Positions 31,168 to 46,652 are shown, counted from the stretch's first letter. The stretch is 64,000 nt of DNA from Paludibacteraceae bacterium (GCA_017527495.1 JAFXPY010000004.1:7102-71101); one strand, 5' to 3'. Notes: a model not told the origin generated them from the sequence alone. Made by a program: numbers and translations.

Positions 31168-34100
31168 CTATTTCTTCACCTTGATATTCATAAATATGAA
31201 TTTCTTGCGTAGGTCTTCAAGTTTGTTGCGGTCGCCATGGCGTGACATAATACCATACAATACCGGCACAACATAAAGTGTAAGGAATGTACTAACTGTC
31301 AAACCACCAATAACTACTATACCAAGCGGTTGCCACATCTCCGCTCCTTCACCATTTGATACAGCCATCGGCACCATACCGAGAATAGTTGTGAAGGCAG
31401 TCATCAACACAGGACGAATACGGCTCTGTCCCGACATGGCTATGGCGGTGTTGAGCTCGTAACCACGCTCACGCATCAAGTTGATATAGTCAACAAGCAC
31501 AATACCATTCTTCACCACGATACCAACCAAGAGCACAAGACCTAAAGCACCAATCATGTCGAGAGTTGTGTGTGTCAGCCAAAGAGCAATAATCACACCT
31601 GAGAGAGCGAAAGGCACACTAAACATAATGATTGCCGGCATACGGAGCGACTCAAACTGACTTGCCATAACGATATATACAAGCAAGATAATGAGTGCAC
31701 CAAGCAAAATCATATCGCCGAACATATCTTGTTGATCCTCATAGTTACCACCGATATGTGTTGAATAGCCAACAGGTATGTCAAGCTGCGGAACAACTTG
31801 TTCCTCCACTTGTTGAGCCAATTCACCCAGTGAGGTGTTGTAAGGTGTTACCTTAACCGTAACAATACGCTGGCGTGACTTACGCTCGATGGTAGGAGGA
31901 GCCCAATATTCACCTACTTCTGCTATTTCGGAGAGTTTAACCATCTTACCCGTTGCCGTCGGTATAGACAAGTCCATAATGTCGGAAATAGAGTTGCGGT
32001 CTTCTTCTTCAAGGCGCACAAGAATGTCGTATTCAGAACCATCGTCTTTTAGATAACCGCACGACATACCTGTTACACGGTTGCGTAGGTAGGTTGATAT
32101 TGTGGCTGATGACAGACCAAGTCGAGATGCTTTCTCTTTGTTTACAGTGATTTTTATGTCAGGTCGGTCGTCTTCACGCGAGATATTTACGTCGCGTGCT
32201 CCATCGAGTTGTGAGCATAATACGCGTGCTTGTTCGGCGAGTTGTGAGGTCTTGTCGAAGTCGTAACCGTAAATCTCTAAATCAACAGTGTTGTTTCCTC
32301 CTCCGGGACCTCCACCTGAAACATTACATTGATATTCAATAATTTCAGGATATGTAGCCATCTCTTGACGCAGTTTTTCTGCTATCTCCCATATCGTCTC
32401 GTCACGATACCATTTTTTAGGTACGCGGATTGTCATTGAAATCTTGTTGTTCATCGTAGAGGAGAACATAGCAGCAATTGTTGCGTCGTCGTTCGAACCT
32501 GCTGATGTATTGATCAGTTCAATATATGGAACGAGTTCAACAAAACGCGTTTCGAGACGGCGCGCTGTCTTGAGCGTTTCCTCAATACGAGTACCGCGTT
32601 GCAATTTAACTGTTACTGACAAACGGCCGTTGTCTTGTTGCTGCATGAAGTCTGTTCCGATTTTGCCATTGATGACAGGCAAAAGTGAGAGAACAAACAA
32701 ACCAAGCAGTATGGTAAGTGTCAGGGCTTTATGGTTCAAACACCAGCTTAGAGAACGAGCATAGAGAGCATCAACTTTATCGAGGAATTTAACCACAGTC
32801 TTGTCGTACCATGTCTTTTCTTTTGCTTCGTCGTCAATAAGGTCGCCATTCTCGTCAACATGTACTTTACGTGCCTTGAGCAGTTTTGAGCAGAGCATAG
32901 GAGTTAGAGTAATGGCCACAACAGTTGAGGTGCAGCAAACAACAGTAACAATCCAACCCAATTCGTGGAACATAATACCTGCCATACCATTCAGCATGGT
33001 CAGAGGTACGAACACTGCCACAAGAACCAAGGTCGTGGCTATGACGCTGACCCAAACCTCGTTGGTGGCATAAATAGCGGCCTCACGAGGGTTCTCTCCG
33101 CGCTCAACATGTCGGGTAATATTCTCCAACACCACAATGGCATCATCAACCACCATACCAATAGCTATGGTGAGCGAACAGAGTGAGATAATGTTGAGGG
33201 ACGAACCTGCTATACCTAAGTAGATAAATGCCACGATAAGGGCAATAGGTATGGTGATACCGATAATTATTGTTGCGCGCCATTTGCCAAGGAAGAACAA
33301 AACGACAAGCACAACGAACAATAGGGCGTAGAGAATACTCTCTTCAAGTGAGTTGATTGAGTTTTGAATGTTTTCTGATGAGTCGTAGATTTTCTCAATC
33401 TTCACGTCGGATGGCAATTGCTTTCGTATCTTTGCCAATTCTTTGCGCACATCGCGGCACACCTGTACGGTGTTTGCTCCGGTTTGCTTGGCAACAATCA
33501 AACGAACCGCTTCACGACCATTTGTCTTTTCGTCGAGCGAGAGGTCTTTGATTGTGTCTTTAATCTCAGCAATATCACGAACAAAAACTTGCTGGCCTTG
33601 TGGCGTCATAGTTATCATCAAATCACCTATCTCCGATGATTCAATATATTCTGAGCGCACTTGCATCTGATATTGCTCTTGAGGCATCTTCACTGTACCC
33701 GACGAGAGGTTCAAGTTGTTAGCTGCAACAACATTACCTACTTGTTCAAGAGTAAGACCGTATGCGTCAAGTTTCTGCTGGTCGATGTTGACATATACAT
33801 AGCGGTCGGGAGCACCGGAAAGCGACAAGTTACCTATACCGTCAATTTGGTTCAGTTGCGGGATAACCTCGTCATTCAAAATTTTGTCCAATCCTGCGTA
33901 TGTCTCATCTGCTGTAATTGAATATTGACAGATAGGCATCGACGAGGTGGAGAGCTTGAAAATCATCGGTGTCCCGCAGTTGTCGGGCAGATTATTCTTT
34001 GTCATATCAACAAACGAACGCACGTCATTGACAGCCTCGTCCATATTGCTTCCCCATTCCAACTCAAGCACAACCATTGAGAGGTTGTCTTTTGATTGTG

Positions 34101-34344
34101 AAGTGATATGTTTGAGGTGGTCAACAGAGGTGAGCGCATTCTCCATCACTTTGGTGACGTTGGTCTCCATCTCAGAGGCTGAAGCTCCGGGGTAGGTGGT
34201 CATCACGGTGATGTAAGGAGGATCCATCTCAGGGAATTGATCGATAGGCAGTCGCAAAAAACTGAACACACCGATCACTATGATGGCAACGAAAATAAGG
34301 GCTGTCGTTACCGGTTTTTCTATCGCGGTTTTATATATTGCCAT
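31168..34344 (-). CDS. RND efflux permease (AcrB/HAE1 family)
   Basis: 1058 aa. Typical N-terminus IEKPVTTALIFVAIIVIGVFSF..LPIDQFPE, with 12-TM architecture motifs. Confidence 0.95.
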   Translation of the reverse strand: MAIYKTAIEKPVTTALIFVAIIVIGVFSFLRLPIDQFPEMDPPYITVMTTYPGASASEMETNVTKVMENALTSVDHLKHITSQSKDNLSMVVLELEWGSNMDEAVNDVRSFVDMTKNNLPDNCGTPMIFKLSTSSMPICQYSITADETYAGLDKILNDEVIPQLNQIDGIGNLSLSGAPDRYVYVNIDQQKLDAYGLTLEQVGNVVAANNLNLSSGTVKMPQEQYQMQVRSEYIESSEIGDLMITMTPQGQQVFVRDIAEIKDTIKDLSLDEKTNGREAVRLIVAKQTGANTVQVCRDVRKELAKIRKQLPSDVKIEKIYDSSENIQNSINSLEESILYALLFVVLVVLFFLGKWRATIIIGITIPIALIVAFIYLGIAGSSLNIISLCSLTIAIGMVVDDAIVVLENITRHVERGENPREAAIYATNEVWVSVIATTLVLVAVFVPLTMLNGMAGIMFHELGWIVTVVCCTSTVVAITLTPMLCSKLLKARKVHVDENGDLIDDEAKEKTWYDKTVVKFLDKVDALYARSLSWCLNHKALTLTILLGLFVLSLLPVINGKIGTDFMQQQDNGRLSVTVKLQRGTRIEETLKTARRLETRFVELVPYIELINTSAGSNDDATIAAMFSSTMNNKISMTIRVPKKWYRDETIWEIAEKLRQEMATYPEIIEYQCNVSGGGPGGGNNTVDLEIYGYDFDKTSQLAEQARVLCSQLDGARDVNISREDDRPDIKITVNKEKASRLGLSSATISTYLRNRVTGMSCGYLKDDGSEYDILVRLEEEDRNSISDIMDLSIPTATGKMVKLSEIAEVGEYWAPPTIERKSRQRIVTVKVTPYNTSLGELAQQVEEQVVPQLDIPVGYSTHIGGNYEDQQDMFGDMILLGALIILLVYIVMASQFESLRMPAIIMFSVPFALSGVIIALWLTHTTLDMIGALGLVLLVGIVVKNGIVLVDYINLMRERGYELNTAIAMSGQSRIRPVLMTAFTTILGMVPMAVSNGEGAEMWQPLGIVVIGGLTVSTFLTLYVVPVLYGIMSRHGDRNKLEDLRKKFIFMNIKVKK

Positions 34345-34395
34345 AATTCCAATATATTAAATGATGAAAAGCAGGAAATCTCGTAAATTCCCGTA

Positions 34396-35430
34396 TTATT
34401 GTTGTGTTGTCTTAACTACTTCAATAGCCACACCGTCAACCAATTTGTGCTGACCGGTGGTAACCATCTCCACGCCTTCTTTGATTTCTGGTGCAATGAT
34501 TTCTATGTCTTGGTCGAAACGCTGTCCGAGAGTTACGGCAACGCGTTTGGCGCGACCATTCTCATTGATAAACACATAGCGGTCGTTGGCTCCGACAAGT
34601 TTCTCTACTGCTTGATATGGAACAACAATGGCATGGTCGCGACCGATAGCAAGAGTGGTGGTAACATACATACCGGGGCGAAGCAATTCAGCTGAGTTTG
34701 GAATAACTATCTTTGCCTCGAAGGTGTGAGTCTGAGCGTTGATGGTAGGATAGACAACTTCTATTGTTGCAGGGAATGTCTTGTTAGGATAAATCTCAGA
34801 AGAAACAGTCAGTGCCATTCCTGCTTTGATTTGCGGGAAATACGTTTCAGGAATAGAAACAAGAGCCTTGAGCTTGTTGATTTGTGTGAGAACCAGAATT
34901 GGTTGCCCGCCGTAAAGCTCGCCATCTTCATAATTCTTTGCAGATATAACGCCGGAGAAAGGAGCCTTAACGTATGTGTTCTTTTGCAAGAAATCTAAGT
35001 TCTCGGCTGTCTGGTCGTATTGGAGCTTAACCTGATCATATTGTTGTTGGCTGACACTTCCGCTCTCGCGCAAGGCACGCATACGCGAATATTCAATCTC
35101 TAAATTGCCGTATGTCAGTTTGCTTGTGTTGAATTGTGTCTGGTCCATACGCACAAGCATATCGCCTTCTTTCTTGCGGTCACCAACCTCGCAATAGATA
35201 TGTTCAATACGCCCCGTAATTGAAGGTGCAACATTTTGGGTCAAATAACCTTGCAGGTTGGTTGAAACGGAAATTACACGCTCAATCTCGCGTGCTTTGA
35301 GCTTTGTTGTGCTCACTTTTTCAACACGTTCTTGTGCTTGCTCTTGTTCGCTACCTGTAGATGTGGTCTCTTTGCCACCACATGCTGCAAGCATCAAGAC
35401 AGATAAAAATAAAATCGATTTGTATTTCAT
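34396..35430 (-). CDS. RND periplasmic adaptor (membrane fusion protein)
   Basis: 344 aa. Lipobox LMLAACGG. Coiled-coil/lipoyl/beta-barrel pattern. Positioned between the TolC and RND genes. Confidence 0.9.
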   Translation of the reverse strand: MKYKSILFLSVLMLAACGGKETTSTGSEQEQAQERVEKVSTTKLKAREIERVISVSTNLQGYLTQNVAPSITGRIEHIYCEVGDRKKEGDMLVRMDQTQFNTSKLTYGNLEIEYSRMRALRESGSVSQQQYDQVKLQYDQTAENLDFLQKNTYVKAPFSGVISAKNYEDGELYGGQPILVLTQINKLKALVSIPETYFPQIKAGMALTVSSEIYPNKTFPATIEVVYPTINAQTHTFEAKIVIPNSAELLRPGMYVTTTLAIGRDHAIVVPYQAVEKLVGANDRYVFINENGRAKRVAVTLGQRFDQDIEIIAPEIKEGVEMVTTGQHKLVDGVAIEVVKTTQQ

Positions 35431-35458
35431 ATATTTTATGTTTTTTTAATTCTAATAT

Positions 35459-35527
35459 CTTACTTCTCACTTCTCACTTCTATTATCTCACTTATATTTT
35501 CTCACTTCTCACTTCTATTATCTCACC
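35459..35527. repeat. duplicated ~35-bp unit made of heptamers (sense strand GTGAGAA) in the TolC-MFP gap
   Basis: CTTCTCACTTCTCACTTCTATTATCTCAC occurs twice, at about 35463-35491 and 35498-35526. Confidence 0.88.
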
Positions 35528-36831
35528 TACTCATTCATAAATTTCATGAACTCAACTTGTGCATTCACCAGTGAGAGAACGGCTTGCACGTAGGTGTTTT
35601 GAGCTGCAATCAAGTCGTTGCTGGCATTGGTGAGTTCAAGCGACGAAGCAACGCCATATTGATATTTGTTGGACATGCTGTTGAATACTCGTTTGGTTAC
35701 CTCTATATTCTTTACTTCATTGATATATGTCTCGTATGAATTAGCGAGGTTGAAACGGAGTTGTTTGTCTTGAACTCCAAGAGCGTCTTGTGTATAGTCA
35801 AGTGTGTTGAGTGCGCGCTCGTAGGCAAGCTTCTTTTCTGTTATTGATGCTCCCGATTTGAAGCTTGTGAAAAGCGGTAAAGACAATGTTAACCCTACTG
35901 TATTAGGCGCTTGCATATTCATTGTACTCTCGTTGGAAAAATATTTACGAGCAGAATACTGATAGTAAGCACTCAGTGTCGGAGAGTATTCCATTGTGGA
36001 TAGAATCAGTTGTCGTTTTGCCAATTCTGTATTTTTCAACTGCAAGCGATAACTGAAATTGCGGTTGATGTCGAAATCTTTGCTCAGCATGGTTAGTGCA
36101 GCCTCAGCACTCAATAGCTCTTCGAGCGTCTGTGTGAGGTGAAGCTCAGTGTCGGAATCAATGTCAAGCATCAGGCGCAGTGCATTGTAGGCCACTTGTA
36201 CAGAACGTTTGTTGGCATTAAGCGAGTTTTTAATTGCTGAAACACGAACCAAAATTTGGTCGGCAGCTGTTTGTTCCGACACACCAACTTCAACAGAACG
36301 TTGCGTCATGTCTGCAAGTGCTTGGAGGTTAGACAAACTGCTATCTAACAAAGCAACGATACTTTCGGTCACAAGCACAGCCAAATAACTTTGCATCACA
36401 TTGATACGCAAGTTGTGTTGTGTTTGCTCAAAATTGATGTCTTGCATGTCTTTTGCCGTTTGTTGGAGCAAGACAGCCAAAACAGTCTGACCATTTATGG
36501 TAACTGCTGTTTGAAGCCCGAAATTCCCGTATGGAGGCATAGCAATGTTGGTTTTCATCGGGCCCATACCAAGTTCCATAGTGTAACCACACATGTTCAT
36601 GTATTGGAAATTGGTTGTAACCTGAGGCAACATTGTAGCAATACTTTGCCATTCTTTGAGTTTGGCCTCGCGTATCTGCAACGACGAGTTGCGCAAATCA
36701 ACATTATGCGCAATAGCGTAGTCTTGTGCTTCCTGAAGACTCAAAGACAGACTTTTAGGAGCCTCTTGAGCCGTAAGCCATAGTGTCGCAAAAACACACG
36801 CTAATGTTAGTAGAATCTTTTTTTGTTTCAT
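35527..36831 (-). CDS. TolC-family outer-membrane efflux protein
   Basis: 434 aa. Signal peptide and two OEP repeats. Located upstream of the MFP/RND genes. Confidence 0.88.
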   Translation of the reverse strand: MKQKKILLTLACVFATLWLTAQEAPKSLSLSLQEAQDYAIAHNVDLRNSSLQIREAKLKEWQSIATMLPQVTTNFQYMNMCGYTMELGMGPMKTNIAMPPYGNFGLQTAVTINGQTVLAVLLQQTAKDMQDINFEQTQHNLRINVMQSYLAVLVTESIVALLDSSLSNLQALADMTQRSVEVGVSEQTAADQILVRVSAIKNSLNANKRSVQVAYNALRLMLDIDSDTELHLTQTLEELLSAEAALTMLSKDFDINRNFSYRLQLKNTELAKRQLILSTMEYSPTLSAYYQYSARKYFSNESTMNMQAPNTVGLTLSLPLFTSFKSGASITEKKLAYERALNTLDYTQDALGVQDKQLRFNLANSYETYINEVKNIEVTKRVFNSMSNKYQYGVASSLELTNASNDLIAAQNTYVQAVLSLVNAQVEFMKFMNE

Positions 36832-36851
36832 ATATGTAATTTTAATTTTAG

Positions 36852-36984
36852 ACCGCTTTGCTGTAAGAAGTCATACCGCTTTGCTGTAAGAAGTCATACC
36901 GCTTCGCTGTAAGAGTTTAGAGATCTCTCACATCTTGCTTCTCACTTCTCACTTTTCACTTTTCATCCTGCTTCTCACTTCTTC
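36852..36984. repeat. 23-bp tandem repeat x2.8 (ACCGCTTTGCTGTAAGAAGTCAT, 36852-36915) plus heptamer tract (36921-36984) spanning the TetR stop codon
   Basis: Direct reading. The TetR C-terminus ..EVRSRMKSEK* is encoded by GAAGTGAGAAGCAGGATGAAAAGTGAAAAGTGA. Confidence 0.88.
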
Positions 36985-37560
36985 TAACCCTTTTTCTGTC
37001 ATTATTGAACGAATTAAGCTGTTAGTTATAAATTTGAGTAATCTTTCTTTTGTGATATATTGAGGGTTAAAGGCCTCATATACCCAGCTCTGATTTACCA
37101 ATGTCACATACGACGCACAAGCCTCTATATCTAAATCATCCCGATAAATCCCTTCTGCAATACCTTTTTTGAGGTGGTTGCTGATATGCTCGCGTACTAT
37201 ATCATTGATTTGGGCATCGTGCTTGTTCTTTATGTCAGGATAGTACTTTCGCAAATCGTAGATAAATGGAGGCTGATTCTGTATGTCTTTCAACTCATTC
37301 ATTGAATCTACAAATATGCGCACACATTCAAGAGCCGACTTGCCGGATAACTTTTCCGTCATGTAGGCAGAAATACAATTGTCAATCAACTCAAGCACGG
37401 CAACAATAAGATCTTCTTTCTGCCTGAAATAGAGGTAGAAAGTCTTTTTCGACATATTAAGCATTCGGCATAAATCGTCAATCGATACACTCCGTATGCC
37501 GTATTGTTTGAATTGTTGAGCCGCCAACTTGACAATTTGAGTTCTTGTTGTGTCTGCCAT
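36949..37560 (-). CDS. TetR/AcrR-family transcriptional regulator
   Basis: ORF 36949..37623 trimmed to ATG 37560 (MADTTRTQIVKLAAQQFKQYGIRSVSIDDLCRMLNMSKKTFYLYF, a TetR HTH). Confidence 0.85.
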   Translation of the reverse strand: MADTTRTQIVKLAAQQFKQYGIRSVSIDDLCRMLNMSKKTFYLYFRQKEDLIVAVLELIDNCISAYMTEKLSGKSALECVRIFVDSMNELKDIQNQPPFIYDLRKYYPDIKNKHDAQINDIVREHISNHLKKGIAEGIYRDDLDIEACASYVTLVNQSWVYEAFNPQYITKERLLKFITNSLIRSIMTEKGLEEVRSRMKSEK

Positions 37561-37630
37561 AATTTTCATTAACAAATCGGCAATTATTTTAACAAAAAAT
37601 GTGCCAAATATGTTAAACAACATAAATAAT

Positions 37631-37658
37631 GGAAACTTTTAACACAATTTAAGTTTCC
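37631..37658. promoter_or_regulatory. inverted repeat GGAAACTT-N12-AAGTTTCC upstream of the TetR gene (candidate operator)
   Basis: 8-bp perfect arms, 71-98 bp upstream of ATG 37560. Followed by four AAGACAAT direct repeats within 37663-37718. Confidence 0.3.
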
Positions 37659-37970
37659 AATTAGAAGACAAAAGAAGACAATTTGCTTTCAAGACAATAT
37701 CAAACAATAGAAGACAATATTGGACTAATAGATAAAATTGGCATTCAAAATGTCCTCAACCGCCGTTTTTATAATTGCGGCAATGATATTGCCGCAGCAG
37801 TTCTTTTCGCCCCAAATCATCTATTGCTGTTATTACACTTTCCCATTTGTTAAATTACTGTGCAGCCGTTCAGTATTAATAAAAGTTAAGTATCGCAAGT
37901 AGTTTATACTTAATAAACAACACCTGTTGTAGGACCTTTCATTATTTATCCATTAATTTCACGATTATTG

Positions 37971-38080
37971 TTATCTACTAATTCCACAAATTCAACGAAT
38001 TAAACAGAGATTTTATCTACTAATTCAACGAATTAAACGGAAATTTTATCTACTAATTCCACAAATTCAACGAATTAATA
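37971..38080. repeat. ~35-bp direct repeat x3 (TTATCTACTAATTCCACAAATTCAACGAATTAAAC), related to spacer A and copy 0 of the 2656-3040 array
   Basis: Copies at 37971-38005, 38013-38038 (lacking 9 nt) and 38046-38080. The TTATCTACTAATT word also occurs at 2656-2668 and about 38299. Confidence 0.85.
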
Positions 38081-38556
38081 CTTTATGATTGATGATAATT
38101 GATGACAAAAAACAGCACCATTCCATTTGTTGGAAAATAATACCAAAACTTGAGGTACTGCCGCCGCAAAAAATAACTATCAAACACGAAGATAATTCGA
38201 AGATAATAAGAAGATACTCTACAGGTAAAAAATCCCCCCCAAAAAACGTAAAACGACAACTAACTTTGTGCAAAATTATTGACAAATAAGGCAATTATAT
38301 ATCTACTAATTACTCAATTTATTCAAGTTTCGCACATGGTAAATACAACAGATATATGATTATGGCAGTTATTTAATGCCTATCGCGTAGCGATTCTCTT
38401 TTAATAGAATAACTAAACTTTCCCACTTCTAAAATTACGGCGTTAGCCGTTGTATAGTAATAGATATAATTGCTAAACACCTTAATTTCAACCACGTAGT
38501 GGTTGCACGTTGATCAATATTCAAGTCAATCGCATAATAAATAAATCAATTTTCGC

Positions 38557-38708
38557 AAGTATTTAATGTGTCAAATTATAGGAACTTGATTATGTCAGAT
38601 TCTAATCCCATTGTTTATTTTAGTTTCAAAGGTAAAAAAAAGCTTTAGTGGTTTTTTATTAATAGAAAATTTATATTTATTCCATCTCTCCCAACCGCTT
38701 TAGCGGTT
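38557..38708 (+). repeat. hairpin-bearing intergenic element, copy 2 (colinear with 3046-3175; 22-nt insertion)
   Basis: AAGTATTTAATGTGTCAAATTATAGGAACTTGATTATGTCAGATTC...AAAGGTAAAAAAAAGCTTTAGTGGTTTTTTATTAATAGAAA...TTCCATCTCTCCCAACCGCTTTAGCGGTTG. Confidence 0.8.
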
Positions 38709-38759
38709 GAAAAGCGATTGATAACTCTATATCTCTTACTCCTAATAATGTGGGAAACT

Positions 38760-38962
38760 TTAATAGAATAATCAGGTTAATTACAAATTTATATTCCATA
38801 GGGATTTTCTTTTAATATCTTAATATCAATGGCTTAAAAGAAATTCCCTACGGGAAATTTTTAAAAAAATGAAAAGTGAAAGATTAAAAATGAAAGGTTC
38901 CTTTCAATTTTCAACTTAAAAGATTTTCCCTACGGGAAAACAAAGATTAACCGGACACTAAT
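38760..38962 (+). repeat. copy of the right half of the 16498-16873 unit (colinear with 16703-16873, central ~30-55 bp replaced)
   Basis: 38760-38857 aligns with 16703-16797 at roughly 85-90% identity by eye. 38915-38962 aligns with 16826-16873 and includes the terminal CGGACACTAAT. Confidence 0.85.
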
Positions 38963-38986
38963 AAAAATAAACCCCAAATCGTAAAT

Positions 38987-39016
38987 AAAAAAAGTACCCA
39001 CAACGGGTACTTTTTT
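38987..39016 (-). terminator. bidirectional-looking intrinsic terminator after the SPFH gene
   Basis: AAAAAAGTACCC-ACAAC-GGGTACTTTTTT. The stem is flanked by an A-run and a T-run. Confidence 0.8.
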
Positions 39017-39035
39017 ATTTAATATGTAAAATGTG

Positions 39036-40016
39036 TTACTTCTTGTCGAACATATCTTTGAAAGAACCGACAGAGCCCAACATGGCAGATGCTTCGTATG
39101 GCATATAAACTGTCTTGCTGTCTTGTCCTGATGCCATTTCTTTGAGTGTGTTGATGTATTTTTCTGCAAGCATATAGTTGGCTGGCGACATGCCTGAGCC
39201 TTTTATTGCTGCTGCAATCATTTGTATTGCTTGTGCTTCAGCTTCTGCTTTGATACGTTTTGAGTCTGCCTCACCTTCGGCTTCAAGAATCTTGGTTTGT
39301 TTGTCGGCTTCTGCTTTGTTGATTATAGCTGCTTTCTTACCTTCTGATTCGAGAATGAGAGCTTCCTTGTCACCTGTTGCTTTGAGCACTTGTGCACGGC
39401 GTTCGCGCTCGGCTTGCATCTGGCGTTCCATTGCATCGCGTACGCTGTCAGGAGGGGTGATGTCTTGCAACTCAACACGTGTAACCTTTACTCCCCATTT
39501 GTTGGTAGCATCGTCAAGGACGGCGCGAAGCTTGGAGTTTATCGTGTCGCGTGATGTAAGTGTCTCGTCGAGTTCCAACTCACCGATGACATTACGCAGA
39601 GTGGTCTGAGTCAGTTTCTCAATAGCGTTCGGGAGGTTGTCAATTTCATAAACAGCCTTGACAGGATCAACGATTTGGAAGTAGAGCAGGGCGTTTATGG
39701 TGGTCGTTACATTATCTTTGGTAATAACGCTTTGTTTCGGGAAATCATAGACTTGTTCGCGCAGGTCAATACGGTCGGTTGTCTTGATTGTAACGCGCAT
39801 GCGTCCGTTGAGGTCGTTGGATGCATAACGAGTTGTGATTTTGCGAGCACTATCGATGATAGGCCAGATGATGTTGATACCTGATTCAAGTGTGCGATTG
39901 TACTTTCCAAGTCGCTCAACAACTTTTGTCTCGGCTTGTGGAATAATCTTAAAGCCTTGGATTACGAAGATAGCTACAAGTAGTGCTATTACTCCTAAAA
40001 TTACATAAGATCCCAT
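39036..40016 (-). CDS. SPFH/band-7 (stomatin-like) protein
   Basis: 326 aa. N-terminal TM, an SPFH core (..RIDLREQVYDFPKQSVITKDNV..), and an Ala/Glu-rich coiled-coil tail. Confidence 0.92.
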   Translation of the reverse strand: MGSYVILGVIALLVAIFVIQGFKIIPQAETKVVERLGKYNRTLESGINIIWPIIDSARKITTRYASNDLNGRMRVTIKTTDRIDLREQVYDFPKQSVITKDNVTTTINALLYFQIVDPVKAVYEIDNLPNAIEKLTQTTLRNVIGELELDETLTSRDTINSKLRAVLDDATNKWGVKVTRVELQDITPPDSVRDAMERQMQAERERRAQVLKATGDKEALILESEGKKAAIINKAEADKQTKILEAEGEADSKRIKAEAEAQAIQMIAAAIKGSGMSPANYMLAEKYINTLKEMASGQDSKTVYMPYEASAMLGSVGSFKDMFDKK

Positions 40017-40040: not shown

Positions 40041-40478
40041 TTATTTTTTTACTGTTAGAATGATGCTGTCTCGGCTTATGATTTCTACCGTCTCACCGAT
40101 TTCTATCGTCTGTCCGTCAGCTGAAACAGCTTTCCAATCGTCGCCGTCAATAGCCACACGACCTGTGTTGGCTGCGTTGTCAATACGCTCCGACACGCGT
40201 GCTTTTCTGCCTATGATGGCATCGGCATTTGTCTTGACCTCATTACCTTTGAAAAACATTTTGATAACTAATGGCCTGACGAATACAAAAGCGAGTGCTG
40301 TTACGACAGCAAAGACTATCAGTTGCCAAAGCATACTGAGTCCGCATGCTGCGCATATTGCTGAACCAATGGCTCCAAAGGAGAAGCACATTACGGCAAA
40401 GCCTGATGTGAAAATTTCGAGAATGACAAAGAATAGAGCCACAAGAGCCCATATATGCCATAATTCTAATCCAAACAT
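40041..40478 (-). CDS. NfeD-family membrane protein
   Basis: 145 aa. Three N-terminal TM segments plus a C-terminal OB-fold-like segment (GRKARV...GRVAIDGDDWKAVS). Ends 24 bp upstream of the SPFH gene, the classic nfeD-SPFH pairing. Confidence 0.85.
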   Translation of the reverse strand: MFGLELWHIWALVALFFVILEIFTSGFAVMCFSFGAIGSAICAACGLSMLWQLIVFAVVTALAFVFVRPLVIKMFFKGNEVKTNADAIIGRKARVSERIDNAANTGRVAIDGDDWKAVSADGQTIEIGETVEIISRDSIILTVKK

Positions 40479-40499: not shown

Positions 40500-41939
40500 T
40501 TATCTTCTCGTGCTTGTACCTGCACTTCGTGTGTTGGTTTGTGTGTTTGCTGAACGCGAACCTGCAGAAGTTGTGTTTGTGCGAGTGTTAGTATTTGTTG
40601 AGCTACTTCTTGTGTTTGAGCTATTACTTGAACTGCGTGTGTTTGTAGAACTGTTTCTTGTGCTTGAACTATTGCCTGTCGAGCGTGTCGTGTTGGTTGA
40701 TGTGCGCGTGTTGGTTGAAGTCGGGGTGGTATTGGTTCGTGTTGTGGTGGTTGTGGTGCGGTTGTTGTTTGTTGTGGTTGAGCGTTCGGTAGTGTTACTT
40801 TTTGTTGTGCGCTCGCCTGTCGAACGATTGGTTGTTGTGGTAGTTGTTGTTTTGCGCGTGTTGGTTGAGGTCGGGGTCGAAGTGGTTGTTTCTGTTATTG
40901 TTTTGGTTCGCGTGGGTGATGCTGTAGTTCGTGTGTTGGTCGTTGTGGTTGTGTTGTTTTGTGTGGCGCGTGTGTTACTTGTTGTTCGTGTTGTTGTTCC
41001 GCTCGTCCGTGTCGTGGTTGTTGACGATTCGTTGGCTGCACTTCGTGTTGAGGTTACTGTTCCGCGGTTGGAACTTGTTGTGGCACTTCGTGTGTTGCTT
41101 ATGTTGCGTGTTCCTGAAAGTTGACTTGCATTGGCTGCTCGTGTTCCGTTTTGAGCTGTAGAGGCACGCGAAGAGAATGATTGGTTAGGATGTGCCCTGC
41201 CATAGTCGTTGCGTTGATAGGTCTCGTAGTAAGTTGTGTAGTTGGTGTAATGGTAGGATGTGGCATAACTGAAATTGGAGCAGTAGTAGTGGTTGGTGAT
41301 GTAGATGTCGATATGTGTTGAGTAGTCGTTATATGGTTTTGGCTTCCAATATTGGTGGTGAGCAGGGTAGTGTTGCCAGTAGTAGGGCGACGACCATGGT
41401 GTATAATAGGTGTTCCAATAGTTATACACTGTTGGACGATGAACGAAAGTTGGCTCAATGATGTATTGAGTACCATAGATAAACGGGTGTCCGATGATTT
41501 GAGCGTAGTAGTTGCTTTCAACAACTATTGTTGCCACATCTTGATAGGCATTCAAAGCGTACACGTCTTGAATAATGATGACGTGTGTTCCGCCGGTGAT
41601 TTGCTCGACAACGCGCAGGTAATCGACATATCCGTCGCGATTGAGGTCGAGGTTACTGATTTGGCGGGTGTAGTCGTTGAGGAACCATTCAAATTCTTCC
41701 ATTGTGCGAGCTTCGGCAAAGGCTACTGCCACGGCTTGCAGGTCGAGGTCGTAACTCAGGTCGTTTGTTGAAGTAACATAAACGGTTTGAGTGTTGCGTG
41801 GTTGATTGACAACAACAGTTTGTGTTGTTGTAGGTTGCGAAACAACAACAGTCTTTGTCTTGGTTTGAACCGGAGTTGTTACCACGCAGGCTGTCATGAT
41901 AGCGACCATAGCAGCACAAATAATGTATTTCAGTTTCAT
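40500..41939 (-). CDS. secreted lipoprotein-like protein: Ca-loop domain + Y/W/H/P-rich segment + ~225-aa Thr/Ser/Arg/Asn low-complexity tail
   Basis: 479 aa. Lipobox-like MVAIMTAC. NLDLNRDGYVDYLRV loop. SPYYWQHYP segment. From about residue 255 to the end the protein is almost only T/S/R/N. Paralog of 42040..43464. Own -7 box at 41967-41974. Confidence 0.75.
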   Translation of the reverse strand: MKLKYIICAAMVAIMTACVVTTPVQTKTKTVVVSQPTTTQTVVVNQPRNTQTVYVTSTNDLSYDLDLQAVAVAFAEARTMEEFEWFLNDYTRQISNLDLNRDGYVDYLRVVEQITGGTHVIIIQDVYALNAYQDVATIVVESNYYAQIIGHPFIYGTQYIIEPTFVHRPTVYNYWNTYYTPWSSPYYWQHYPAHHQYWKPKPYNDYSTHIDIYITNHYYCSNFSYATSYHYTNYTTYYETYQRNDYGRAHPNQSFSSRASTAQNGTRAANASQLSGTRNISNTRSATTSSNRGTVTSTRSAANESSTTTTRTSGTTTRTTSNTRATQNNTTTTTNTRTTASPTRTKTITETTTSTPTSTNTRKTTTTTTTNRSTGERTTKSNTTERSTTTNNNRTTTTTTRTNTTPTSTNTRTSTNTTRSTGNSSSTRNSSTNTRSSSNSSNTRSSSTNTNTRTNTTSAGSRSANTQTNTRSAGTSTRR

Positions 41940-41966
41940 ATTTTTGAGTTGTTAAGTTTTGATATG

Positions 41967-41974
41967 CAAAAATA
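41967..41974 (-). promoter_or_regulatory. candidate -7 box for 40500..41939 (and NfeD-SPFH)
   Basis: CAAAAATA on the + strand equals TATTTTTG on the minus strand, 28 nt before ATG 41939. Confidence 0.5.
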
Positions 41975-42039
41975 ACATTTTTTTTGTATTTTGCAAAGAA
42001 TTAAAGCATTTATTTGTGTTAGACTGAGTTTTTTGGTTC

Positions 42040-43464
42040 TTATCTTCTTGAGCTTCCGCCTCCTGAGCGTGAGCCTCCGCCACCGGAACTTCCTCCTCTT
42101 GAGCCTCCTCCGTAAGATCCTCCACCGCTGCGTGTTCCTCCTCCGTAAGAACCGCTACTTCTGGTGCTTGAGCCCCCGTATGAGCCACTACTGCGTGTTG
42201 AAGAGCTTCCGCTATATGAACCGCTACTGCGTGTGCTTGTGCTTGACGAGCGAGTTGACGAACTTGAAGAACTCCGTGTCGTTGTCGGGCTGCTTGCTCT
42301 CGTTGTGGTGCTCGAACTTGAACTGCGTGTTGCTGAGCTTCGTCCTGATGTCCCACTGCTTCGTGTCGTTGTTGCGGTTGTGCTTCGTGTTGTTGCACTG
42401 CTTCGTGTTGCATTTCCGTTAGATGTGCTTCTTGTCGTTGTGGCGCTTGTACGATTACCGCTTTGTCTTGTTGTGGTAGTGCTTGTAGCCGAACTGCGTG
42501 TGTTGCCATTTTGTGCTCGTGCTGTTGTGCTGCGTGTCGTCGATGCTGTTGAGCGTGAGGCTGCATTTCCTGCACGTGTGCCGGTGGTGCGTGTGGTGTT
42601 GCTCAGGCGTGTGTTGGTTCTGACATTGCTACTATTGAATGTGCGCGAGTTGCCTTGTCTTGCTGCACTATGACCTGAGCGTGTTGCTGCATTGGCTGCA
42701 CGAGTGTTGGTGGCAACTCTATTGCTTTCGAGATTTCTTGCGTTGCGCACTCCTGTGTTGCGACTTTGGAAACTTCTTTCCGGATGACGTGTGGCATAGT
42801 CGCGGCGGCTACTTCCGTTGTGCATGCTCCTGAAACCATGGTGTAACTCCTTTGGATGACGATAGGAGCAATATGGACGATGGTGATGCCATGTGTAGAT
42901 ATGGTGCCAATAAACATCATACGCCCAGCAGCTGTAAGGATGCCACCAAACTGGGTAATATCCCCAGTAGTATGGTGAGTACCATGCGTACCATGTCGGA
43001 CCCCAGAACCAATCGTAAATGACAGGTTGTACAACATATACAGGTTCAATTATGTAGTTGGTTCCATAGATGTACTCATCGCCAACAATCTGAACTGTAG
43101 TTTGTTGTGTGGCTTCATCTTTTTCTACATATATGCTTGCAACATCTTGGAATATGTCTTGAGCGAGAACAGCTTGTATAACAATAAGGTGTTTCTTGCC
43201 TTCAGCTGTTTCAATCACTCTCAGATAATCAACCTGACCATCGCCATTGAGGTCGAGATTGTTGATGTGAGCACTATCATTATTGATTGTTCGCTCAAAT
43301 TCCTCGAGGTTCTTTGCTTCGCCGAAGATGTTGGCAACTGCTTTCAAGTCAAGTTGTTCGGCGATTTCGTTTTGTGTGGCAGTAACCGTGATAGTCTCAT
43401 CCGCCCATGTGTTGAGGGTTAGTGCCAAAAGCAGGGCAATCAGGGTAGTTACTTGCGTTTTCAT
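42040..43464 (-). CDS. secreted protein, paralog of 40500..41939, with tail ending in SYGG/RGG-like repeats
   Basis: 474 aa. Signal peptide ...LTLNTWA/DE. NLDLNGDGQVDYLRV loop. SPYYWGYYPVWWHPY segment. The tail from about residue 230 is T/S/R/N/G-rich and ends GGSRGGSSGGGGSRSGGGSSRR. Confidence 0.75.
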   Translation of the reverse strand: MKTQVTTLIALLLALTLNTWADETITVTATQNEIAEQLDLKAVANIFGEAKNLEEFERTINNDSAHINNLDLNGDGQVDYLRVIETAEGKKHLIVIQAVLAQDIFQDVASIYVEKDEATQQTTVQIVGDEYIYGTNYIIEPVYVVQPVIYDWFWGPTWYAWYSPYYWGYYPVWWHPYSCWAYDVYWHHIYTWHHHRPYCSYRHPKELHHGFRSMHNGSSRRDYATRHPERSFQSRNTGVRNARNLESNRVATNTRAANAATRSGHSAARQGNSRTFNSSNVRTNTRLSNTTRTTGTRAGNAASRSTASTTRSTTARAQNGNTRSSATSTTTTRQSGNRTSATTTRSTSNGNATRSSATTRSTTATTTRSSGTSGRSSATRSSSSSTTTRASSPTTTRSSSSSSTRSSSTSTRSSGSYSGSSSTRSSGSYGGSSTRSSGSYGGGTRSGGGSYGGGSRGGSSGGGGSRSGGGSSRR

Positions 43465-43559: not shown

Positions 43560-43567
43560 CAAATTTA
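43560..43567 (-). promoter_or_regulatory. candidate -7 box for 42040..43464
   Basis: CAAATTTA on the + strand equals TAAATTTG on the minus strand, 96 nt before ATG 43464. Confidence 0.4.
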
Positions 43568-43620
43568 TGCAAAAAAGCAAAAAATACTTGCAAAAGGTTG
43601 GCTTTTTGGAAAAAATGTTG

Positions 43621-43667: not shown

Positions 43668-46652
43668 ATGAAAAAATTTTTACTTTTTTCCCTGCTATTC
43701 TTTATTTCATGTAGTGTTTTTGCCAATATAGCAACTCCTTTCCCTATTGAAGTAGAGCAACCGGATGGAACAACGCTGACGATTCGCTTGCATGGTAACG
43801 AACATTTTTCTTACAAGACTACTCTTGACAATCATTTTGTTGCACGTAATGACAAAGGAGAGTATGTCTATACAAAGTACAATACCGATGGCTCGCAAAA
43901 TCTTACGTCTGTTGTTGCCCACAATGCAGATTTTCGTGGGACAGCAGAGCAAAATTTTGTGGCTACTCTTTCTACTGAGTTGCCCTTCGACCAAATCGCT
44001 GTAACGCAGCGCCGTGCACCGCAACAGAAGCAGTTGTCACGTGGTTTCCCATTGTTAGGCTCTCCACGCAGTTTGGTTATACTGGTCAATTATAGTGATG
44101 TTAAGTTTATCACTGAGAATGCGCGTCAGGAGTTTGACGATTTGTGCAATCTCTCGGGATATTCAAAAAATAATAACCGTGGTTCGTGTCGTGATTTCTT
44201 TATAGCACAATCTGACAGCCTTTTCCAGCCTGATTTTGATGTAGTAGGTCCTTACGACCTGCCTCGTGAGCGTGCTTATTATGGTGCAGATGATGGCGAC
44301 AATCACTCTACTAATTCCGACCAAATGATTATTGGTGCCTGCGATTTGGCAGATGCTGCCGGCGTGGACTTTTCAAAATACGACTACGATGGTGATGGCG
44401 TAATCGACAATGTATTTGTGTTCTTTGCCGGACACGATCAGGCGCAGTCCGATATAACTGATGCAATATGGTCGCATAGATCAAACATCAGCCAGAATGT
44501 AGAGTTTGATGGCAAAAAATTGAGTGGTTATGCATGCTCGTCAGAGTTGCGCGGTGGCTCGGGAAGTACAGGAATGGCAACTATAGGAACTTTCTGTCAC
44601 GAATTTGGACATGTGCTCGGTTTGCCGGACTATTACGACACATCTTATAAATCAGGCGAGACAATCGGAACATGGGACATTATGTGCAATGGCTCATACA
44701 ATGGTCCTGAAAGATATTCTGGTGCCACACCTCCGTCTTATTGCTCACATTCACGCTGGTGGTTAGGCTGGAGAAAAGTTGAGCAACTGACTATGCCGGG
44801 TAGCTATAGCCTTTTGCCTGTTGCATTAGAAGGAACTACAAGTTATATGATAGCTCAAAACCGACACTCGCTCGACCCAACTGCAAAAGCAGAATATTTC
44901 TTGCTTGAAAACAGACAAAGAGTGGGTTGGGACAACACGACAACAAGTGTTCCAGGAACGGGCCTATTGGTATGGCATGTGATTTATGACGACGGAATAT
45001 GGCTCGCAAACCGACCGAACACATCTCCTAATTTGTTGTTCTATGTTGAGTCGGCAACAGGCAATAAACGAACAGCAGGTAGTGCCAATGATACCTACGG
45101 AGCACAAAAAAATGTTTTCATTCCTATGTTGGTTGATGGAACAAATATCAATCAACCTATCTACAATATCGCTCAGACAGGTGTCAATATGACCTTTACA
45201 TACAAAGAAGAAGAATTCAATGTAGTGCCACAACAGCTCAATACTTTTGTAACAGATATATGGTACGAAAACAAAAAAATCAATTCTTCAAAAACTGATT
45301 ATGCTATACAAAGCATTACTCTGAAAGCTGATTCACTCAGTCTTGAGGATTCTGTAATTACCATTACATCTAACAAAGAGCAATTTAGATTCTCTGCTGA
45401 TTCGTCTATAAATAGCGTATCAAGATCATATTCAATCAAACTCACAGAGGCAAAACTAAATCATAAGTTCTATGTTGTGTTTGCTCCAACAAAACCATAT
45501 TGTGAAGATAAAGCAATTGACGCAGTCCTGACTTTCCGTCATGGCTCAAATATGCAGGTATTGGCTGTTACAGGCTATGCCCCGCAGAAATCTTTAATGT
45601 CTGTTCCTGCGGCACTCAATCCTACTTATGTAACCCCTTATTCGGCTGAATTGAATTGGAAAAGTGTCAATGATGCAACAGATTATTATCTCACACTATA
45701 TCAGATGAGCGACAATGCTTCATCGCAAACGCAGAGTTTCGAGGATTTTGCTGATGCCTCAAAGGTGGCAATTGCAGGATGGAAGAGTAACTTCAATCGT
45801 ACAACTCGTACCTATAAACAAGACGGCAACTATAGCTTGTATTTCAATAATTCAGGTGAATATGTCGAAACCGAAACATATCCGGCCAATGTAAATCAAA
45901 TATCATTCTGGGTTGCACCTTACAATGTATCACCGAGCGATGCCGTCATTGGCAAACTCAAATTAGAAGGTTACAACGGCAAGAAATGGGTAAGTGTGGT
46001 GAATGAAATAACCATCCTCGCAAAAACAGAAAAAGGATTTTTGACTTTCGATGTTGATGAGAGTCTCGGTTTGTCGCAGTTCCGCTTGACGGCAACAACA
46101 GTTAACGGAAAAGGATTTGTCATAGATGCCTTTACAGCCAATATGGCAAAACAAATAACATACGTATTCCCTAACAAAAATGTGAGAGTTGAATCAACTA
46201 CCCTCAAGAGTGGTCAAATTGAGACTTATCATGTTGGCAATCTCAATCCTAATGCCAAATATTATTTCTATGTTGCAGCATCAGATGAAGCTCGTGCCTA
46301 TTGCAGAACCCACCTGACAGATGCTTCGGCAACAATAGAATTTTCTACATTAGAAGGCAATACCGGCGATCGCGATTTGACCTATGGAGTTATGGAAGTT
46401 GAGGTCGAAGAAGGCGGCATGTACTATAACAAACAGCAACGAATGATTTATGTTCCTGTTGCTGACGGCACATCAACATTGTATTTCTACGATGCCTTCG
46501 GTCATCTTGTTGCTTCTGTTCCTGTGCCTGCTCAGCAAAATGCCGTTCCATTCCCTGCAGGCAATTTTGAAGAAGGTCATTGGTATGTAATCAAATATTC
46601 GCCTAACGACAAAATGAAACGCAAAGACCGCAGAATAAAGATTCTGTATTAA
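43668..46652 (+). CDS. M6-family (immune-inhibitor-A-like) zinc metalloprotease with probable T9SS C-terminal sorting domain
   Basis: 994 aa. Signal peptide. HEFGHVLGLPDYYD zinc motif. Ig/FN3-like middle region. The last ~80 aa (..LYFYDAFGHLVASV..GHWYVIKY..RRIKILY) resemble a T9SS CTD. Confidence 0.82.
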   Translation: MKKFLLFSLLFFISCSVFANIATPFPIEVEQPDGTTLTIRLHGNEHFSYKTTLDNHFVARNDKGEYVYTKYNTDGSQNLTSVVAHNADFRGTAEQNFVATLSTELPFDQIAVTQRRAPQQKQLSRGFPLLGSPRSLVILVNYSDVKFITENARQEFDDLCNLSGYSKNNNRGSCRDFFIAQSDSLFQPDFDVVGPYDLPRERAYYGADDGDNHSTNSDQMIIGACDLADAAGVDFSKYDYDGDGVIDNVFVFFAGHDQAQSDITDAIWSHRSNISQNVEFDGKKLSGYACSSELRGGSGSTGMATIGTFCHEFGHVLGLPDYYDTSYKSGETIGTWDIMCNGSYNGPERYSGATPPSYCSHSRWWLGWRKVEQLTMPGSYSLLPVALEGTTSYMIAQNRHSLDPTAKAEYFLLENRQRVGWDNTTTSVPGTGLLVWHVIYDDGIWLANRPNTSPNLLFYVESATGNKRTAGSANDTYGAQKNVFIPMLVDGTNINQPIYNIAQTGVNMTFTYKEEEFNVVPQQLNTFVTDIWYENKKINSSKTDYAIQSITLKADSLSLEDSVITITSNKEQFRFSADSSINSVSRSYSIKLTEAKLNHKFYVVFAPTKPYCEDKAIDAVLTFRHGSNMQVLAVTGYAPQKSLMSVPAALNPTYVTPYSAELNWKSVNDATDYYLTLYQMSDNASSQTQSFEDFADASKVAIAGWKSNFNRTTRTYKQDGNYSLYFNNSGEYVETETYPANVNQISFWVAPYNVSPSDAVIGKLKLEGYNGKKWVSVVNEITILAKTEKGFLTFDVDESLGLSQFRLTATTVNGKGFVIDAFTANMAKQITYVFPNKNVRVESTTLKSGQIETYHVGNLNPNAKYYFYVAASDEARAYCRTHLTDASATIEFSTLEGNTGDRDLTYGVMEVEVEEGGMYYNKQQRMIYVPVADGTSTLYFYDAFGHLVASVPVPAQQNAVPFPAGNFEEGHWYVIKYSPNDKMKRKDRRIKILY

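Follow-up and report, generated by a model that had tools for sequence, protein, structure and literature searches.

A 64,000-nucleotide stretch of DNA from a Paludibacteraceae bacterium (GCA_017527495.1 JAFXPY010000004.1:7102-71101; this whole stretch is called the window below) carries, just upstream of an ordinary nfeD-SPFH pair and on the same strand, two adjacent genes whose products of 474 and 479 amino acids (A474 and B479) each combine an export signal, an acidic head and a very long basic tail. The locus raises the question of what these proteins are, and whether they work together with NfeD and SPFH, as a preliminary description of the DNA had proposed. Comparison of the pair with its homologs suggests, with somewhat more confidence than doubt, that A474 and B479 belong to an undescribed family of exported envelope proteins found across the Bacteroidota, in which an acidic head is joined to a basic, disordered tail that would bind the envelope electrostatically, and that the position of the pair before nfeD-SPFH is a rearrangement peculiar to this species.

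Extent of the family and its export signals

The two proteins are 39% identical over 282 amino acids (E 2e-50), which bears out their original description as paralogs. Searches with the heads retrieved 642, 281 and 616 proteins in three separate runs, phmmer, run exhaustively, gave 1282 clusters (50% identity, E<=1e-3), 956 of them with E<=1e-10, and a scan by sequence pattern, with each GTDB species represented by one genome, yielded at least 351 confirmed stretches, nearly all labelled Bacteroidota. The sources comprise Bacteroidales, Marinilabiliales, Flavobacteriales, Cytophagales and related groups; the few labels from outside the Bacteroidota belong to metagenome bins. All of the source names seen were "hypothetical protein", save a few UniRef "DUF3300" labels, and a literature search for a described equivalent of the family found none. 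As first noted, no named family is recognizable: Pfam and NCBIfam held nothing above threshold for A474, B479 or 18 homologs, with noise-level matches to Dockerin, FG-GAP, EF-hand and Met_gamma_lyase. Judged by its sequences, this is a large, unnamed and undescribed family of exported proteins that extends throughout the Bacteroidota.

Both a soluble type, like A474, and a lipoprotein type, like B479, occur in the family, with about 30% of the full-length members sampled having a lipobox-like N-terminus. A474 is 60-69% identical to soluble-type homologs in other Paludibacteraceae genomes. Orthologs of B479 in metagenome contigs L093-L097 are 65-70% identical to it over residues 1-260, and lipoprotein-type relatives from other Bacteroidales are 45-50% identical. 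Since B479 is nearer to these other lipoprotein types than it is to A474, the two types are old, and A474 and B479 are, on these identities, ancient paralogs. A second, independent pair of paralogs was seen in the flavobacterium Urechidicola vernalis (L076, 9962-11065 and 12032-13066), on the same strand and one gene apart.

The UniRef labels suggest an alternative identity for the family, as a divergent branch of DUF3300 (PF11737; E. coli YacH type). Three members (P0373, P0444 and P0511) are named "DUF3300 domain-containing protein", and the layout of YacH is similar: it is exported, with a folded N-terminal domain, a Tyr/Pro-rich stretch (PDVVYIPNYNPTVVYGNWANTAYPPVY) and a long, basic, Arg/Gln-rich low-complexity tail that ends in Arg residues (RRLER). 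However, YacH itself, used as a positive control, matched PF11737 at 1.5e-78 (263.8 bits), whereas A474, B479 and all 18 of 18 homologs, including the three so named, were without a DUF3300 match at E<=1 or E<=10 and did not reach the gathering score of 25 bits. Alignment by hhalign of the 108-sequence family profile with YacH gave a probability of 1.0% over 16 columns. There is thus no detectable sequence relationship, and the tails also differ, that of YacH being Gln/Arg/Glu-rich with long repeats and that of the family Ser/Thr/Arg-rich. The DUF3300 identity was rejected, the UniRef labels are unsupported by these comparisons, and descent from a DUF3300 ancestor of the YacH type is considered very unlikely. 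YacH, which has been reported to be CpxR-regulated and linked to protamine sensitivity, and is uncharacterised beyond this, is the only analog of similar layout (PMC9600279).

The preliminary description had read one export signal as of signal peptidase I type and the other as lipobox-like, and both were found (Table 1). The hydrophobic N-terminal segment of A474 is kept in the family consensus, and the lipobox Cys of B479 is retained in its relatives (LASC, LSAC, LTGC and AAGC); with a lipobox and an invariant Cys, B479 has the features of a bacterial lipoprotein and putative signal peptidase II substrate. Export of the family is supported by these conserved signals. Surface lipoproteins of the Bacteroidota carry an acidic export signal within about five residues after the Cys. 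No Asp or Glu follows the Cys in B479 or its relatives (VVTTP, VVSTP, IVTTP, APTRI, GLTRI and FPASI), which suggests that B479 faces the periplasm.

The orientation of B479 is also relevant to the possibility that members of the family are surface or secreted adhesins, with tails that bind extracellular polyanions such as extracellular DNA, mucin, host glycans or, in the rumen and gut, plant cell-wall pectin. A strongly cationic tail could serve in this way, and metagenome-assembled genomes from rumen and gut are the source of many of the homologs. In addition to the missing acidic signal, however, no C-terminal domain model for type IX secretion cargo held in Pfam or NCBIfam was matched, the C-terminus consisting of the low-complexity tail; members are equally found in Flavobacteriia and Cytophagia of marine origin; and the genomic neighbours of the family are housekeeping genes. 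An adhesin function is therefore judged unlikely, and the periplasmic envelope protein is the reading followed below.

Heads, tails and the calcium-loop-like motif

A survey of charge in 251 members having tails of at least 50 amino acids found the head to be net negative in every one (median -13) and the tail to be net positive in 250 (median +20). On this composition, an acidic head followed by a basic tail is a design rule conserved across the family. The pooled tails contain 24% Ser, 15% Thr, 12.7% Arg, 7.9% Asn and 7.0% Gly; hydrophobic residues account for a median fraction of 8.7%. Such a composition indicates that the tails are disordered. In a set of 176 tails the net charge is positive in 99%, RR forms the C-terminus in 56%, and two or more of the last four residues are Arg or Lys in 80%. 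Tail chemistry shifts with lineage, becoming Lys/Gln/Pro-rich in some Flavobacteriia and Cytophagia with the positive charge retained.

The long polycationic tails first noted in A474 and B479 were confirmed at 239 and 224 amino acids (net +33 and +26), and both lie above the family's 90th percentile of 174 amino acids; the median is 127-138, depending on the sample. Ser (28%), Thr (21%), Gly (14%) and Arg (14%) dominate the A474 tail, which has a single acidic residue, and Thr (39%), Ser (19%), Asn (13%) and Arg (12%) that of B479. In both, a basic residue occurs on average once per 7 to 7.6 residues.

Similar architectures are known elsewhere. In TonB, TolA, LpoA/LpoB and RcsF a folded module is joined to a long disordered periplasmic region, Pro/Lys/Glu- or Ala-rich, that acts as a linker between two functional ends. 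The present family likewise joins a folded module to a flexible low-complexity region, to which B479 adds a lipid anchor and a disordered tether, but its polycation is a free C-terminus and its head is not similar to that of any of these proteins. Eukaryotic RGG/FUS-like and silaffin-like regions, which phase-separate or template minerals, combine Ser, Tyr and Gly with regularly spaced Arg, as does the end of the A474 tail (SSGSYGGSSTRSSGSYGGGTRSGGGSYGGGSRGG). This likeness is one of composition; there is no homology, the setting is the bacterial periplasm, and most of the family's tails are without the Tyr/Gly component.

The reality of the tails as protein was weighed against the possibility that they are artefacts, either of open reading frames (ORFs) that run on through stop-free low-complexity DNA or of true genes on the opposite strand. 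Public metagenome gene calls over the tails in eight conspecific contigs (L081-L088) place antisense ORFs of 204 and 169-170 amino acids there, or an alternative-frame ORF of 144 amino acids; the corresponding positions in the window are 40510-41124 (+), 42164-42673 (+) and 42603-43049 (-). The full 474- and 479-residue products are likewise absent from a collection of 15 billion proteins. Against this, each tail is contiguous with a conserved and confidently folded domain. Across the same eight contigs, in which NfeD is identical, both ORFs are open wherever covered, and A474 occurs as alleles of 474, 482 and 487 amino acids that keep the same stop position and differ in the copy number of a 12-residue unit (GGSSTRSSGSYG) and by indels of 1 and 3 amino acids, all in frame. 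Hundreds of homologs that use different codons still have a tail that is rich in Ser, Thr and Arg and net positive, with RR at most of the C-termini, and the antisense ORFs consist of Val/Leu/Glu runs, which mirror the sense codons automatically. An artefactual origin is scarcely credible on this evidence. The in-frame indels and the family-wide character of the tails show, as far as sequence can, that the A474 and B479 tails are translated, and the antisense and alternative-frame calls are an annotation artefact. With tails miscalled on the wrong strand, counts of the long-tailed members in protein databases are probably too low. Tandem Repeats Finder detected no array in the tail DNA; the repetition sits at the level of protein and codon class and not in DNA arrays.

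The folded part was modeled with AlphaFold2, using residues 21-260 of A474 with a 108-sequence alignment and residues 19-260 of B479 with a 95-sequence alignment. The models have a predicted local distance difference test score (pLDDT) of 89 and a predicted template-modeling score (pTM) of 0.86 for A474, and a pLDDT of 83.5 and a pTM of 0.81 for B479. The order of elements is common to both: two helices, a loop, five beta-strands and a helix-rich aromatic part. A stretch rich in Tyr, Trp, His and Pro had been described as a segment of its own between head and tail. The stretch is indeed there, with 90 residues in each protein of which 38 and 35 are Tyr, Trp, Phe or His, but the models fold it together with the head into one compact predicted domain of about 215 amino acids. 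A fixed length of 83-99 amino acids (median 88) across the family agrees with its being part of the fold and not a linker or a separate low-complexity segment. Residues 19-51 of B479, in the tether between lipid anchor and head, are predicted to be disordered. Foldseek found no match at E<=0.001 for the A474 model in PDB and BFVD or for the B479 model in PDB (best E-values of 0.87, 0.30 and 0.35, with TM-scores below 0.3), and sequence and profile searches of PDB were also without a match. The predicted head thus has no counterpart among the solved structures of PDB. As a separate observation, residues 63-65 in the A474 head (D-S-A; nt 43270-43278) match D-[ST]-[AILVMT], the motif for O-glycosylation in the Bacteroidota; among 251 members it is present in the folded part of only 37 and in the tail of only 2.

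The single calcium-loop-like motif DxNxDGxVD that had been pointed out in the heads is present, and its ligand positions are invariant. In the A474 loop, D71-L-N73-G-D75-G76-Q-V-D79, residues D71, N73, D75 and D79 are invariant among 108 sequences, as are Y80 and R82, and G76 is kept in at least 90%. In the B479 loop, D98, N100 and D102 are invariant and G103 nearly so among 95 sequences. The loop conforms to the pattern D-x-[DN]-x-D-G of the DxDxDG class, and the head is, on this motif, probably Ca2+-binding. The loop has D-x-N-x-D-G-x-x-D in common with those of EF-hands, dockerins and FG-GAP/integrin repeats, and none of its acidic or amide ligand positions varies, but it is neither a canonical EF-hand nor a dockerin. 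Positions 1, 3, 5, 6 and 9 fit an EF-hand, whereas position 12, Glu or Asp in the canonical form, is the invariant R82, a beta-strand instead of a helix follows the loop, and there is one loop and not a pair. For dockerin type I, in which the Ca-binding F-hand segment is duplicated, the single loop scores 13.4 bits (E 0.093) against a PF00404 threshold of 22.9 bits; the other sub-threshold Pfam matches on the loop are FG-GAP (E 0.14) and EF-hand_1 (E 0.4).

The nfeD-SPFH neighbourhood

The arrangement of the locus is as originally reported, with A474, B479, nfeD and SPFH on one strand, intergenic gaps of 100, 21 and 24 bp (recovered from the ORF coordinates), one terminator-like hairpin after SPFH and a divergent M6 metalloprotease adjoining. 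From this layout it had been proposed that the four genes form one functional operon, in which membrane-microdomain scaffolding is coupled to polycationic exported proteins. Within the species, several features are in accord with the proposal: the 21- and 24-bp gaps, a hairpin found only after SPFH, and the same arrangement in all eight conspecific contigs as far as they reach. The Bacteroidetes promoter motif (TTTG-N17-23-TAnnTTTG), which has 15 matches in the window versus 3.3 expected by chance, is also absent from the start of B479 to the end of SPFH. Matches do, however, precede A474 and, in the 100-bp gap, B479 (Table 1). With a promoter motif for each of the paralogs, the four genes are not obviously one transcript. 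B479, nfeD and SPFH may well be co-transcribed in this species, as the spacing and motifs suggest; if real, this would be a local consequence of rearrangement and not evidence of shared function.

In other organisms the family gene was examined in 109 loci: 80 from genomes, with flanks of as much as 10 kb to either side, and 29 from metagenomes. NfeD or SPFH homologs were found near it in none of the 109, either by tblastn at 1e-5 or by phmmer at E<=0.01 over the 4,940 six-frame ORFs of these loci, and in none of three additional Pfam-annotated contexts of lipoprotein-type relatives. An M6 protease was found in 1 of the 109 loci, 7 kb distant, and is not a conserved neighbour. In two sister lineages, represented by contigs L093 and L094, the A-B tandem is retained (gaps of 52 and 36 bp; heads 72-78% identical to those of the window) without nfeD-SPFH and in flanks that have nothing in common with the 64-kb window (in L093, an M3-type peptidase, named from its sequence, lies upstream and unrelated genes downstream). 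NfeD-SPFH is in any case a self-contained, widespread gene pair, and A474 and B479 share no domain with either of its products. Because the tandem persists in unrelated flanks and NfeD/SPFH homologs lie near the family gene in none of the other loci examined, the conserved unit is at most the A-B pair, and the nfeD-SPFH adjacency is specific to the Paludibacteraceae species of the window. A joint operon function for the four genes is accordingly very unlikely, and the adjacency to nfeD-SPFH and to the M6 protease is better read as a species-specific rearrangement than as a functional module. The preliminary description had suggested a survey of homologs for the linkage, whose absence would speak against its proposal, and it is absence that the survey returned.

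Other contexts of the family gene are conserved within narrow groups. In 41 Paludibacteraceae loci the soluble type stands at the end of a string of cdd, lptF/G and ribBA. In five related loci (L064, L066, L069, L071 and L077) the family gene lies between hemL and hemE in a heme biosynthesis cluster with the order ALAD, aminotransferase, family gene, URO-D, HemN and oxidase, and in further loci it is found beside cvpA and rnhB. Each of these contexts is confined to one related group. The five family proteins of the heme clusters are 67-80% identical, and their placement is therefore probably inherited synteny. Conserved neighbours were considered as a clue to function and rejected as such, the cdd-lptF/G-ribBA and heme contexts being inherited within related groups. 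In two Bacteroidales genomes (L089, 7177-7665; L091, 7140-7631) homologous lipoproteins of 162-163 amino acids, with a short collagen-like Gly-Pro repeat at the N-terminus and no Pfam domain, are encoded after the lipoprotein-type family gene. This small downstream gene was tried as a hidden NfeD and discarded on finding that it encodes a collagen-repeat lipoprotein.

Possible role at the envelope, and features of the window

Taken as envelope proteins, A474 would be the soluble periplasmic form and B479 the lipid-anchored form. The head would act as a specific module, probably Ca2+-dependent. The tail, long, flexible and polycationic, would keep the protein attached to anionic surfaces of the envelope through multivalent electrostatic contacts, for which the phosphates of phospholipid or lipid A and the carboxylates of peptidoglycan are candidates. 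The lipoprotein paralog would supply a fixed membrane anchor, and the soluble paralog may pair with it.

Several observations weigh against this interpretation. A few members (P0100 and P0119) have near-neutral or Lys/Gln/Pro-rich tails, which shows tail chemistry to be loose. An invariant Arg occupies the position of the bidentate Glu of EF-hands, and places Ca2+ binding at the level of a motif. The claim of an unrecognised fold covers PDB and BFVD. The genes are closely spaced and nfeD is preceded by no promoter motif, which leaves room for genuine co-expression of B479 with nfeD-SPFH in this species, and there is no conserved operon partner that points to a process. What is new here, in a narrow sense, is a protein family and its fold, and not a demonstrated mechanism.

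The conserved opposite charges of head and tail also make head-to-tail self-association possible. In its strongest form this would make the family a phylum-wide periplasmic polyampholyte, in which acidic, Ca2+-loaded heads would associate head-to-tail between molecules with polycationic tails that in some members resemble RGG or FUS sequences, the lipoprotein paralog would nucleate assembly at a membrane, and the resulting gel or condensate, tunable by Ca2+, would organise the envelope or couple it mechanically. Such an assembly is very improbable; were it real, it would stand in for Lpp-type tethers, which the Bacteroidota are not known to have. If the envelope-binding reading is confirmed, the Bacteroidota would possess a widespread family of envelope proteins that nobody has named or studied, and one that offers a tractable entry to how these bacteria build and hold their envelope and to disordered polycations in the periplasm. 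Among the carriers are marine Flavobacteriia and Cytophagia that are in culture, and major bacteria of the gut, rumen and mouth belong to the same phylum.

Table 1. Positions of the paralog pair, its protein segments and adjoining features in the window.
Feature	Position	Strand	Basis or remark
A474 (474 amino acids; soluble, signal peptidase I type family member)	43464..42040	minus	ORF call
A474 signal peptide, residues 1-21, signal peptidase I type, MKTQVTTLIALLLALTLNTWA/DE (...LNTWA/DE)	43402..43464	minus	read by eye
A474 acidic alpha/beta head, residues 22-145, net -16	43030..43401	minus	composition and AlphaFold2, pLDDT >90
A474 DxNxDGxxD calcium-loop-like motif, D71-D79	43228..43254	minus	conservation in 108 sequences
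A474 aromatic sub-domain, residues 146-235; Y/W/F/H 38/90	42760..43029	minus	composition; predicted folded, pLDDT ~87-96
A474 polycationic Ser/Thr/Gly/Arg tail, residues 236-474, net +33, C-terminus SSRR	42043..42759	minus	composition
B479 (479 amino acids; lipoprotein-type family member)	41939..40500	minus	ORF call
B479 lipoprotein signal and lipobox, residues 1-18, ...IMTAC (MTAC = residues 15-18)	41886..41939	minus	judged by eye
B479 Thr/Val/Gln-rich tether from lipid anchor to head, residues 19-57 (39 amino acids)	41769..41885	minus	composition; residues 19-51 pLDDT <50
B479 acidic head, residues 58-165, net -12	41445..41768	minus	composition, alignment, AlphaFold2
B479 DxNxDGxxD loop, D98-D106	41622-41648	minus	conservation in 95 sequences
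B479 aromatic sub-domain, residues 166-255; Y/W/F/H 35/90	41175..41444	minus	predicted folded, block-mean pLDDT 79-95, mostly >89
B479 polycationic Thr/Ser/Asn/Arg tail, residues 256-479, net +26, C-terminus STRR	40503..41174	minus	composition
Bacteroidetes-type promoter motif TTTG-N23-TAAATTTG, upstream of A474	43560..43594	minus	motif scan
Bacteroidetes-type promoter motif TTTG-N19-TATTTTTG, in the 100-bp gap upstream of B479	41967..41997	minus	motif scan
nfeD	40478..40041	minus	Pfam NfeD 1.8e-15; neighbour only, outside the family's conserved context
SPFH/Band 7 gene	40016..39036	minus	Pfam Band_7 1.6e-40; neighbour only
Terminator-like symmetric hairpin, GC stem, A and T runs at the sides	38988-39016		20 nt past the SPFH stop
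M6 metalloprotease	43668..46652	divergent from A474	Pfam/NCBIfam search

Deposited accessions are available for NfeD (MBR3564990), SPFH (MBR3564989), the M6 protease (MBR3564993) and an enolase (MBR3564994), and these neighbours mark the window as part of a metagenome-assembled genome of the Paludibacteraceae. An Rfam scan of the whole window found one tRNA and nothing else. Between SPFH and a tetR gene downstream of it lies an AT-rich region of about 1.4 kb (37624-39035; GC 0.28-0.33) that has no ORF of more than 75 amino acids and no Rfam match. This gap varies in length among the conspecific contigs, tetR being about 546 bp nearer in L082 than in L081, and a 119-residue ORF is called in it in L082, L083 and L088. 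Downstream of the gap, at 31168-37623 on the minus strand, are tetR and a three-gene resistance-nodulation-division (RND) efflux set consisting of an outer-membrane factor, a periplasmic adaptor and an RND pump, with Pfam labels taken over from the conspecific contigs. On the other side of the pair, an ORF of 1698 amino acids occupies 52229-57325 on the minus strand.

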